From the NCBI RefSeq assembly GCF_050920415.1, contig NZ_CP169309.1: DNA of 64,000 nucleotides. One strand, given 5' to 3'. Under the pieces are notes generated by a model that was not told the DNA's origin, did not search any database, and saw only the letters and a list, made by a program, of their open reading frames with translations. Shown here one piece after another: positions 5,703 through 7,136 of this stretch (position 1 is its first letter; the number at the start of each line of letters is the position of its first letter). The translations under genes and the position numbers were made by a program. Source of the DNA: Escherichia coli (GTDB taxonomy: Bacteria > Pseudomonadota > Gammaproteobacteria > Enterobacterales > Enterobacteriaceae).

Positions 5703-5950
5703 CTTACCATCTCGTTTTACAGGCTTAACATTAAAACCGACATAAGCGTGATATTCGCTATTATCGGCATGATTTGTTTTATATGCTAAACAAGATAGTC
5801 GAATGGTGGGGAAAAGTCACTCGAAATACGTATGAGATGACGAATGCCACACTTTGCGTCTTATTCCTCCGACGTAGAGTCGTTTACGCAGCAAGCGCGG
5901 AGTATGTCATCAGGGTCAAGAATTGAAATTGAGAGATGCCTGAATAGCAA

Positions 5951-6130
5951 AAAAGCGCCTTTAGGGCGCTTTTTTACATTGGTGGGTCGTGCAGGATGAC
6001 TCACTTCGCTCGCCCTTCGGGCCGTCGCCGCGAGCGGCTCCGTTGTTTCGCTGCGCTCAACTCGAACCTGCTGCAGGTTCGAATCTTTGAATATCCCAGA
6101 TAGCAAAAAAGCGCCTTTAGGGCGCTTTTT
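5951..6130 (-). repeat. Duplicated terminator hairpin plus vestigial tRNA-Lys 3' end, distal to lysQ
   Basis: aaaagcgcctttagggcgcttttt occurs at about 5951-5975 and 6106-6131; TTGGTGGGTCGTGCAGGAT (tRNA-Lys 3' end) recurs at 5979-5997 without the rest of the tRNA. Confidence 0.7.
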
Positions 6131-6136
6131 TTACAT

Positions 6137-6212
6137 TGGTGGGTCGTGCAGGATTCGAACCTGCGACCAATTGATTAAAAGTCAACTGCTCTACCAACTG
6201 AGCTAACGACCC
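6137..6212 (-). tRNA. lysQ: tRNA-Lys (anticodon UUU)
   Basis: Reverse complement gives a 76-nt tRNA GGGTCGTTAGCTCAG...CTTTTAATC...CACCA; position 7 of the operon. Confidence 0.93.
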
Positions 6213-6344
6213 CTTGCGGGATTATGCTGCTTTAATCATTCAGGATGGTGGGTCGTGCAGGATGACTCGACTTCGTCTCGCCCTTCGGGCCGTTGCTGAC
6301 GCAACGTTATCCTTCACATTCTCTACCAGTAACCACCTTTAAAT

Positions 6345-6420
6345 TGGTGGGTCGTGCAGGATTCGAACCTGCGACCAATTGATTAAAAGTCAACTGCTCT
6401 ACCAACTGAGCTAACGACCC
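6345..6420 (-). tRNA. lysZ: tRNA-Lys (anticodon UUU)
   Basis: Identical 76-nt tRNA-Lys copy. Confidence 0.93.
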
Positions 6421-6566
6421 ATACGGGTGTTACCTGAATGATTTCTACTCGGGACCAATCTTTAATATTGGTGGATCGTGCAGGATGACTCGCTTCGCTC
6501 GCCCTACGGGCCGTTGCTGGCGCAACGTTATCCTTCACGCTTAACATCTGAGTTTGATGTTAAAAC

Positions 6567-6642
6567 TGGTGGGTCGTGCAGGATTCGAACCTGCGACCAA
6601 TTGATTAAAAGTCAACTGCTCTACCAACTGAGCTAACGACCC
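6567..6642 (-). tRNA. lysY: tRNA-Lys (anticodon UUU)
   Basis: Identical 76-nt tRNA-Lys copy. Confidence 0.93.
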
Positions 6643-6645
6643 GAG

Positions 6646-6721
6646 TGGTGGGTGATGACGGGATCGAACCGCCGACCCCCTCCTTGTAAGGGAGGTGCTC
6701 TCCCAGCTGAGCTAATCACCC
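6646..6721 (-). tRNA. valZ: tRNA-Val (anticodon UAC)
   Basis: Reverse complement gives GGGTGATTAGCTCAGCTGGGAGAGCACCTCCCTTACAAGGAGG...CACCA; 3 nt from lysY. Confidence 0.93.
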
Positions 6722-6771
6722 GATACTGCGCTGGATACTACAAACTACTTCCACCGAACCCACCGCATTAG

Positions 6772-6847
6772 TGGTGGGTCGTGCAGGATTCGAACCTGCG
6801 ACCAATTGATTAAAAGTCAACTGCTCTACCAACTGAGCTAACGACCC
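6772..6847 (-). tRNA. lysW: tRNA-Lys (anticodon UUU)
   Basis: Identical 76-nt tRNA-Lys copy. Confidence 0.93.
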
Positions 6848-6849
6848 GG

Positions 6850-6925
6850 TGGTGGGTGATGACGGGATCGAACCGCCGACCCCCTCCTTGTAAGGGAGGT
6901 GCTCTCCCAGCTGAGCTAATCACCC
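6850..6925 (-). tRNA. valT: tRNA-Val (anticodon UAC)
   Basis: Identical tRNA-Val copy, 2 nt from lysW. Confidence 0.93.
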
Positions 6926-7060
6926 GATACTACGCTGGATACTACAACTAACTAGGTTAGTGGTGGGTCGTGCAGGATGACTCGACTTCGTCTCGCCCTT
7001 CGGGCCGTTGCTGACGCAACGTTATCCTTCACGTTTTACTACCGCTTCCACCTTAGCGAT

Positions 7061-7136
7061 TGGTGGGTCGTGCAGGATTCGAACCTGCGACCAATTGATT
7101 AAAAGTCAACTGCTCTACCAACTGAGCTAACGACCC
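7061..7136 (-). tRNA. lysT: tRNA-Lys (anticodon UUU)
   Basis: First gene of the operon; identical 76-nt tRNA-Lys. Confidence 0.93.

Follow-up and report, generated by a model that had tools for sequence, protein, structure and literature searches.

tRNA-linked repeats of the RtT family in the lysT operon of an Escherichia coli genome

Four segments in the spacers of the lysT tRNA operon of this Escherichia coli genome are tRNA-linked repeats (TLRs) and belong to the Rfam family RtT; three of them are short internal forms and one is a long form. The operon was studied within a window, the whole stretch of 64,000 nucleotides that was analysed. TLRs in the lysT operon are already known and the present work re-finds a feature that was catalogued decades ago: the repeats go back to Egan & Landy 1978, were catalogued by Rudd 1999 and are summarised in PMC8144298, and our literature searches returned no newer TLR work beyond that paper. 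K-12 carries 22 TLR copies at 10 loci, with one to five copies per locus (PMC8144298); its lysT locus is one of these ten, and five TLRs were counted there in the K-12 sequence. Taken as a whole, the TLR/RtT identity together with the account of loss and processing proposed below is, in our estimate, right with a probability of about three in four.

All features of the operon lie on the minus strand, which corrects the earlier account of this locus, and ARAGORN calls seven intact tRNA genes, which are transcribed in the order Lys-Val-Lys-Val-Lys-Lys-Lys, as the first-pass annotation had stated. The first gene is lysT (tRNA-Lys(UUU), 7061–7136; Rfam tRNA 79.2 bits), and behind it come TLR 1, a short form in the lysT-valT spacer (6961–7060), and a stretch of 35 nt (6926–6960) that follows the TLR or, in TLR-free strains, stands directly after the tRNA. 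The next genes are valT (tRNA-Val(UAC), 6850–6925) and lysW (tRNA-Lys(UUU), 6772–6847), then the lysW-valZ spacer (6722–6771), which is an empty TLR site here and holds a fifth TLR in K-12, and then valZ (tRNA-Val(UAC), 6646–6721) and lysY (tRNA-Lys(UUU), 6567–6642). TLR 2, a short form in the lysY-lysZ spacer (6469–6566), precedes lysZ (tRNA-Lys(UUU), 6345–6420), and TLR 3, another short form in the lysZ-lysQ spacer (6246–6344), precedes the last gene of the operon, lysQ (tRNA-Lys(UUU), 6137–6212). Beyond lysQ lie a trailer with the first intrinsic terminator T1 (6100–6136), the distal long-form TLR 4 (5980–6099), and a second copy of the trailer and terminator, T2 (5944–5979). It had been noticed earlier that the terminator and the tRNA fragment are duplicated distal to lysQ, and this is correct: 5944–5975 equals 6100–6131 in 32/32 nt, and when ACAT and the tRNA-derived 18-mer are added the repeats measure 54 versus 55 nt and differ in a single T of the T-run. 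The T1 hairpin is AAAAAAAGCGCC-CUAA-AGGCGCUUUUUU, which was also scored as a palindrome, and T1 is treated as the operon terminator in the literature. The calls of T1 and T2 as terminators rest on sequence and literature; the terminator scan missed both on the minus strand and flagged only plus-strand P4 hairpins, and the promoter scan found nothing.

There are nine copies of the 3' end of tRNA-Lys (TGGTGGGTCGTGCAGGAT in plus-strand spelling) in the window, five of them inside tRNA-Lys genes; 100 shuffles gave a chance expectation of none. The four copies outside the tRNAs end the four units, at 18/18 in 5980–5997, 6246–6263 and 6961–6978 and at 17/18 in 6469–6486, where the mismatch is an A at 6475. 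Fragments of this kind had been proposed at about 5979, 6248, 6468 and 6960 with a length of 19 nt; the four copies are real and the positions now stand at 5980, 6246, 6469 and 6961, but the length is 18 nt. This block corresponds to tRNA positions 59–76, from the T-loop to the CCA, and the base beyond it is T in tRNA-Lys and G in the fragments. The conserved segment that was said to adjoin each fragment is found as well, with 89–100% identity over 48–94 nt between copies, and the core CGGCCCGAAGGGCGAG has exactly four copies; on realignment the spacer units keep both the tRNA-derived 18-mer and the shared core.

All four units are located directly downstream of tRNA-Lys genes, the distal one after T1, and they carry the same family core as the tyrT, lysV-distal and rrnB units of K-12. 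Against the RtT model (RF00391), TLR 1 and TLR 3 score 60.6 bits each, TLR 2 scores 54.2 and TLR 4 scores 49.9, all above the gathering score of 45, which the internal units pass only with the upstream tRNA aligned to the 5' part of the model. The TLR 1 spacer alone gives a 5'-truncated match of 42.3 bits over model positions 51–130. The distal unit passes the threshold alone, over the full model and without a tRNA, and it is labelled 'RtT sRNA' by PGAP in an identical genome. A tRNA pseudogene was considered and rejected, since neither ARAGORN nor the Rfam tRNA model calls anything besides the seven intact genes. Compared with the TLRs of K-12, the units share the position after the tRNA, the 18-nt tRNA end and the core, and they differ in nothing essential; this strain has four units rather than five, an empty lysW-valZ site and one 18-mer with a SNP. 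The RtT RNA of the tyrT operon was reportedly described by Bösl and Kersten in 1991. The distal unit follows the long-form plan of RtT/rttR, namely T-arm hairpin, tandem-GA, core and tRNA 3' end, but the units here carry the end of tRNA-Lys instead of tRNA-Tyr, the internal ones lack model positions 1–50, no tpr-like ORF has a start codon, and the lysT operon units are known from sequence and not as released RNA.

The TLR module measures roughly 100–120 nt on the transcribed strand and begins with a variable 5' part. A closing helix, P1, joins a 5' strand to the T-stem portion of the tRNA-derived 18-mer, and the core consists of the hairpins CGUUGC/GCAACG and GCCC/GGGC and a variable third one. 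In TLR 1 the order is a variable 5' hairpin, P1 (GUGAAGGAU with AUCCUGCAC), the hairpins P4, P5 and P6, and the 18-mer. The long forms contain extra tRNA-derived pieces, 8–10 nt of the T-arm 5' half with its complement; in TLR 4 a hairpin at 6062–6085 holds this 5' half of the tRNA-Lys T-arm (GCAGGUUCGA), and behind it come a tandem-GA hairpin, a variant P4, P5, P6 and then the 18-mer. A covarying tandem-GA motif in RtT has been reported by an independent paper.

In two alignments, one of which includes TLR 4 as a row, 94.1% and 93.9% of the cells are paired, against 29–50% with slid partners, and two-sided changes are seen in 6 and 12 pairs, respectively. P1, P4 and P5 are recovered in MFE folds. 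The fold thus appears to be maintained by compensatory changes, including changes in P1 that go with the type of tRNA. As the search pattern itself prescribed most of the two best-conserved hairpins, their invariance is partly by construction, and the covariation of P1 reflects largely a few switches of tRNA type rather than many independent events. The fold z-score of TLR 2 is −3.1; z-scores are alike on both strands, with the distal unit weak at −1.4 and −1.7, and both strands fold about equally well; the G-U versus A-C pairs in the helices, at 8:5 and 17:23, do not single out a strand either. Correction of hairpins or palindromes at the DNA level could mimic RNA covariation. P1 in the Lys units is only 7–10 bp long, and cutting of P1 by RNase P as a minihelix is speculation.

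Each TLR is an independent indel of approximately 100 nt that is bounded exactly by two 18-nt direct repeats. Among 13 E. coli loci we found ten architectures with five to seven tRNAs and zero to five TLRs, including one with seven tRNAs and no TLR at all, and whole blocks of tRNA-Lys/Val units are lost or duplicated between strains. This comparison of tRNA copy number and spacers across strains agrees with the previous proposal that the array expands and contracts, and the repeats mark its break points. An empty spacer is an exact match to what stands after the 18-mer in a filled one; the lysT-valT spacer of O157:H7, for example, equals the 6926–6960 stretch. Across 5,426 E. coli genomes single TLRs occur at frequencies of 33–75%: TLR 1 is present in 3545, TLR 2 in 4054, the common variant of TLR 3 in 1790 and the SNP variant of the window in 7, and the K-12-type lysW-valZ unit in 2310. 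The TLR 3 count was redone with the K-12 spelling, as the SNP of the window breaks the 28-nt megablast word. Since strains without any TLR in the lysT operon exist, AVS0283 among them, the modules are dispensable.

The core is not derived from tRNA and is common to modules behind tRNA-Lys, tRNA-Pro, tRNA-Arg, tRNA-Tyr and 5S rRNA genes, and each module closes with the 3' end of the gene next to it. A scan for the core in 100,044 species genomes gave 109 stretches, nearly all of them in Enterobacterales. When a tRNA lies closely upstream, 79 units end in an exact copy, 17–19 nt long, of the 3' terminus of that tRNA (18–19 nt in all but one), which is tRNA-Lys, Pro-CGG, Pro-UGG or Arg-ACG, and the fragment even follows lineage-specific variants of the tRNA in Hafnia and Pragia. 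The junction with the tRNA is fixed at A58/A59 of the T-loop for Lys, Pro, Arg and Tyr. Both the plan and the core recur in the tyrT and rrnB units, and the module of TLR 4 is also found after lysV in K-12. The lysT-valT unit occupies the same site in Salmonella, Citrobacter, Kluyvera, Enterobacter and others, and at the syntenic cpoB-nadA locus of other genera TLRs are found at varying sites. The 5' parts are unlike between sites yet conserved between genera at one site, which indicates old, vertically inherited copies. The core also exists without a tRNA, as units of 74–76 nt and as tandem arrays in Pectobacterium (10.9 copies), Marinobacter, Alloalcanivorax and Pseudomonas; these free-standing units match no Rfam family.

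An earlier suggestion was that the segments are no more than traces of unequal recombination, in which crossing-over between tRNA-Lys genes left truncated tRNA ends and junk without an identity in the spacers. The loss and duplication of tRNA-Lys/Val blocks between strains and the further tRNA-derived pieces in the long forms speak for such scars, but most of each unit is core sequence that does not come from tRNA, is conserved across genera and recurs behind other tRNAs and 5S rRNA, the units match a curated RNA family, the helices stay paired through compensatory changes, and the lysT-valT unit keeps its site from Salmonella to Enterobacter. The shared core largely refutes this reading, and we regard it as very improbable. 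Many tyrosine integrases use the sublocation from the T-loop to the CCA. The identity block spans precisely this part, and the units resemble integrase att sites in tRNA genes in having a direct repeat that begins in the T-loop of the tRNA 3' part, so that they might be remnant att sites of phages or islands targeting tRNA-Lys; seeding of attachment sites had also been raised in the first-pass annotation. However, the repeats are only 82–138 nt apart with nothing but mechanical ORFs between them, the insert of about 100 nt has a conserved core that is shared behind unrelated tRNAs, and there is neither integrase nor cargo here. A phage collection held no TLR save in mislabelled Salmonella contigs and no attP-type partial match to the tRNA-Lys 3' end. 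The units are therefore not members of that class, and the att reading is effectively refuted and hardly credible. Least plausible of all, to the point of being nearly dismissed, are genes for small basic peptides like tpr of the tyrT repeats: Arg-rich frames exist, with a GTG ORF MKDNVASATARRARRSRVILHDPP in two units and a Tpr-like frame RQQRPEGR, but here the Tpr frame lacks a start codon, the frames of the units are put out of register by a 2-nt indel, all ORFs are mechanical, and conservation lies in the helices and not in the codons.

A small non-autonomous DNA element that inserts at the 3' end of stable-RNA genes and duplicates 18–19 bp of target, or a template switch at the T-arm hairpin, would account for the direct repeats of local sequence on either side of every unit, for the fixed A58/A59 junction, for the free-standing and tandem cores without tRNA, and for a fold that is not clearly assigned to one strand. 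Against this, the site-specific 5' parts kept between genera point to old vertical inheritance, no transposase or recombinase is associated and no phage or plasmid carrier was found. A target duplication of 18–19 bp is also unusual for known bacterial transposition, and we think this explanation improbable. It is somewhat less doubtful, though still unlikely, that the TLR core is an autonomous structured module which is copied or inserted at the 3' ends of stable RNAs by an undescribed mechanism; the fixed junction and the helix strands re-tailored to each tRNA would be explained just as well by strong selection for mimicry of the tRNA end.

The units might instead be stable trans-acting sRNAs that are excised and act on Hfq, CsrA or mRNAs like RrA, RrB and RrF, the TLRs located between the dual terminators of rrnA, rrnB and rrnD (PMC8144298). 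The distal unit resembles these in lying between two terminators (T1-unit-T2) after the last stable-RNA gene, exactly as rrB does, and in its AACGUUGCG...GCAACGGCCCG.AGGG core; the fold is conserved, and RtT, the tyrT relative, is annotated as rttR, an RNA of 171 nt. The rrn relatives differ in ending in the 5S rRNA 3' end and in carrying GGA motifs, and while RrA, RrB and RrF bind Hfq and CsrA in vitro, the CsrA-sponge predictor InvenireSRNA gives less than 0.01 for all 19 TLRs of tRNA operons (PMC8144298). Moreover, the units are missing from many strains. With probes for all four K-12 lysT spacers, Northern blots showed nothing but large precursors, seen in RNase P mutants, and a small spacer RNA was not reported for the wild type (PMC4176162); the TLR fold may thus never exist as a free RNA. 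Spurious processing at the fragments had been raised as well in the first-pass annotation. The sole published RtT phenotype was retracted (PMC8144298). The 3'ETS-leuZ sponge RNAs (PMC8144298) are likewise by-products of a tRNA operon with a potential second life; there is no sequence relation to them, they have no copy of a tRNA end, and there is no evidence of target pairing here. A trans-acting sRNA is on the whole quite unlikely, and for the internal units it is the least likely of the functions considered.

Under the preferred TLR/RtT reading, the internal modules would be transcribed within a precursor of about 1100 nt, in line with the K-12 spacer probes that hybridise to a lysT transcript of this size, and they would be removed as 3' trailers once RNase P cuts the next tRNA (PMC4176162). 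Transcripts would reach the distal module only when T1 is read through, a route that has been reported for the TLRs of rrn operons. The 18-nt repeats probably allow modules to be lost, by slippage or by recombination between them, while tRNA numbers may change through recombination between identical tRNA genes. Intervening hairpins favour such repeat-bounded deletions. Because a module ends in the 18 nt of its tRNA and runs into the spacer that would otherwise stand behind the tRNA itself, its presence or absence would leave the leader of the next tRNA unchanged, and hence the operon would tolerate either the filled or the empty state. We favour a role in cis, in which the module may act as a structured mimic of the tRNA end within the precursor; the next option is a neutral, self-maintaining passenger.

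The lysT operon is among the more variable tRNA loci of E. coli, which affects tRNA gene counts, assembly and annotation. If either an insertion mechanism or the mimicry of a tRNA end holds true, the TLRs would be something unlike passive recombination debris, and the filled and empty alleles provide natural, isogenic-like contrasts that can be used for testing their function.

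ARAGORN and the Rfam tRNA model place seven intact tRNA genes in the lysT operon, which is encoded on the minus strand; in transcription order they are lysT (7136–7061), valT (6925–6850), lysW (6847–6772), valZ (6721–6646), lysY (6642–6567), lysZ (6420–6345), and lysQ (6212–6137). Four extragenic copies of ATCCTGCACGACCCACCA (tRNA-Lys positions 59–76) start on the plus strand at 5980, 6246, 6469 (one mismatch), and 6961, where chance would give none. The first-pass annotation had placed tRNA-Lys 3′ ends at these four spacer sites and was right except in their length, since they agree with the tRNA over 18 rather than 19 nt: the base beyond is T in the gene but G in the fragments. 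The conserved segment it saw beside each fragment is also real, and precedes the 18-mer in the RNA sense. Beyond lysQ, where it had described a duplicated terminator and fragment, trailer, terminator, and 18-mer do occur twice, over 54 and 55 nt with the central 32 nt identical. The lysY-lysZ 18-mer differs from the tRNA end at 6475 (A for G, plus strand); the corresponding unit of the close relative Escherichia sp. E1V33 (locus L111) keeps the unmutated form.

These repeats are real and already known. They are tRNA-linked repeats (TLRs), first described in 1978, whose hallmark is that the repeat and the tRNA or rRNA upstream of it share their last 18–19 bp; a 1999 catalog of K-12 counted 22 copies at ten loci, one to five at each, and the sole reported phenotype has since been retracted (PMC8144298). 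The Rfam model of RtT RNA (RF00391) matches all four units with 49.9–60.6 bits against a gathering score of 45, the three internal units (lysT-valT, lysY-lysZ, and lysZ-lysQ) passing only with the 5′ third of the model on the T-arm of the upstream tRNA; without that tRNA, the spacer scores 42.3 bits against model positions 51–130. Because the threshold needs the upstream tRNA, the internal units count as short-form members of the family. The long form is represented, at full length, by the distal unit, which PGAP labels “RtT sRNA” in a genome identical over the stretch.

The core, the conserved non-tRNA hairpin segment of each unit, was searched as the pattern GCGNNAGCAACGGCCCGNAGGG in 100,044 species, one genome each, yielding 109 stretches, Enterobacterales nearly throughout, and was found behind tRNA-Lys(UUU), tRNA-Pro(CGG), tRNA-Pro(UGG), and tRNA-Arg(ACG). 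It is also part of the tyrT repeats (rttR) of K-12 and of the rrnB T1-T2 interval. Among 79 units kept by a filter of at least 17 nt identity between unit end and upstream tRNA, 78 end in 18 or 19 nt of their own upstream tRNA's 3′ end, and in Hafnia and Pragia, where tRNA-Lys and tRNA-Arg, respectively, are lineage-specific variants, the fragment changes with them. A core shared behind such different genes, each unit ending in its own tRNA, speaks against the earlier view of a mere recombination footprint. In the short form the closing strand lies immediately 5′ of the core. The long form sits after a terminator, is followed by a second terminator copy, and holds 8–10 nt of the 5′ half of the cognate T-arm, ending at A58 and lying 61–66 nt ahead of the fragment, and thus resembles a tRNA 3′ end with the core placed in the T-loop. 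The window's distal unit shows this plan between its terminators T1 and T2. A near-identical module stands behind lysV of the K-12 valU operon (L118, 930–1120), which accounts for the median of two sites per E. coli genome that the distal unit hits as a query.

Short and long forms alike have small hairpins enclosed by a closing helix, in which a 5′ strand pairs with the T-stem portion of the fragment; the closing strands are GUGAAGGAU/AUCCUGCAC for Lys, GGGAGGAU/AUCCUCCC for Arg, GAGGAU/AUCCUC for Pro, and GGGGAAGGAU/AUCCUUCCCC for Tyr. Aligned short forms (26 sequences) are paired in 94.1% of cells, against 29–50% with the 3′ partners slid, and long forms (23 sequences, including the distal unit) in 93.9% against 33–50%, the two central hairpins being largely fixed by the search pattern. 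Changes on both sides affect 6 pairs in the former and 12 pairs (37 cells) in the latter, although closing-helix covariation reflects few independent events and the fold evidence fits either strand. The helices are recovered in minimum free energy folds of the window units (z-scores −2.5 to −3.1), and the covarying tandem-GA motif that an independent study observed in RtT is present here too.

The array has expanded and contracted, as first proposed: thirteen E. coli loci show ten architectures with 5–7 tRNAs and 0–5 TLRs, so that tRNA copy number and spacers both vary between strains, and coverage of the window operon reaches 80% or more in only 950 of 5,426 complete E. coli genomes. O157:H7 has Lys-Val-Lys-Val-Lys and AVS0283 seven tRNAs, both without a TLR. 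Strains 300444 (L121, 1080–1355) and CB8671 (L122, 1225–1506) carry the distal terminator-TLR module twice in tandem (T-TLR-T-TLR-T), an arrangement like that of the 178-bp repeats present in several copies behind K-12 tyrV. The window has four TLRs at this locus and K-12 five because the lysW-valZ spacer (6722–6771), filled in K-12, is an empty site. Empty spacers match exactly the part of filled spacers after the 18-mer, and therefore each TLR is an indel of about 100 nt between two 18-nt direct repeats. As lower bounds, megablast requiring an exact 28-nt word, the lysT-valT unit occurs in at least 3545 of the 5,426 genomes, the K-12-type lysW-valZ unit in at least 2310, lysY-lysZ in at least 4054, lysZ-lysQ in at least 1790 (plus 7 with the window's SNP variant), and the distal type, whose query also matches the copy behind lysV, in at least 3238. 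At the syntenic cpoB-nadA locus, sampled through core matches and hence only in species that have a TLR, TLR sites vary in Salmonella, Citrobacter, Kluyvera, Enterobacter, Phytobacter, Atlantibacter, and Superficieibacter, and the lysT-valT unit is usually present. The units thus appear to be old. Hairpins between direct repeats promote deletion, and most empty E. coli sites would have arisen by precise deletion between the 18-nt repeats, while whole tRNA blocks may have been gained or lost through recombination between identical tRNA genes. In E. coli IH5 (L008, NZ_CP168949.1, 1054–2244), lysT is the sole tRNA left after cpoB and yrdA/aroE follow directly instead of nadA, which is a chromosomal rearrangement, or a misassembly, with its break point inside the operon.

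Other readings of the fragments fare poorly. Attachment-site remnants, akin to the initial idea that the fragments could seed such sites, are contradicted by repeats only 82–138 nt apart and by the lack of an integrase or phage homology; tRNA pseudogenes by units without a match to the tRNA models of ARAGORN and Rfam; and Tpr-like peptides by the missing start codon of the tpr frame in these units and by a 2-nt indel that shifts frames between them. The 18-mer/core junction creates an antisense ATG (GCAGG-ATG-ACTC) opening short plus-strand ORFs (MTRLRLALRAVADATLSF...) in three units (6977–7102, 6214–6342, 5996–6103), which are probably meaningless. The tRNA-Lys genes (6139–6212 and others) match on the plus strand the plastid ycf2 5′UTR family at 28.5 bits, below its gathering score of 65.7, almost certainly a tRNA-derived artefact of that model.

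The K-12 lysT operon yields a transcript of about 1100 nt, from which RNase P works from the 3′ end, removing the terminator and then freeing each tRNA 5′ end; long spacers are regarded as exonuclease-trimmed 3′ trailers. With probes to all four spacers, the sole signals were large precursors, seen when RNase P was mutant (PMC4176162). Both this result and the CsrA-sponge score below 0.01 of tRNA-operon TLRs (PMC8144298) speak against the internal units yielding free RNAs in abundance. The distal unit would be made only via T1 read-through, as shown for relatives in rrn operons (PMC8144298). After the module's 18-mer the spacer is the same as after a bare tRNA; the next tRNA's leader is unaltered, which would explain why filled and empty states are both tolerated. 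We favor a TLR that would either act in cis, as a structured tRNA-end mimic, or be a neutral passenger.

In Pectobacterium, Marinobacter, Alloalcanivorax, and Pseudomonas, TLR core hairpins are also found detached from tRNA and rRNA ends, as free-standing units of 74–76 nt flanked by ATAAAAAA, singly and in arrays. Pectobacterium polonicum has a 10.9-copy tandem array (L102, 5832–6637), and other loci are L104 (~2693), L105 (~1231), L019 (431), L064 (772/848), L024 (550), and L034 (1319); none matches an Rfam family at E ≤ 0.01. These units bear extra hairpins with GGA loops in a layout resembling the rrnB T1-T2 unit, and the tRNA-free core is the one loose end worth noting beside an otherwise known feature.
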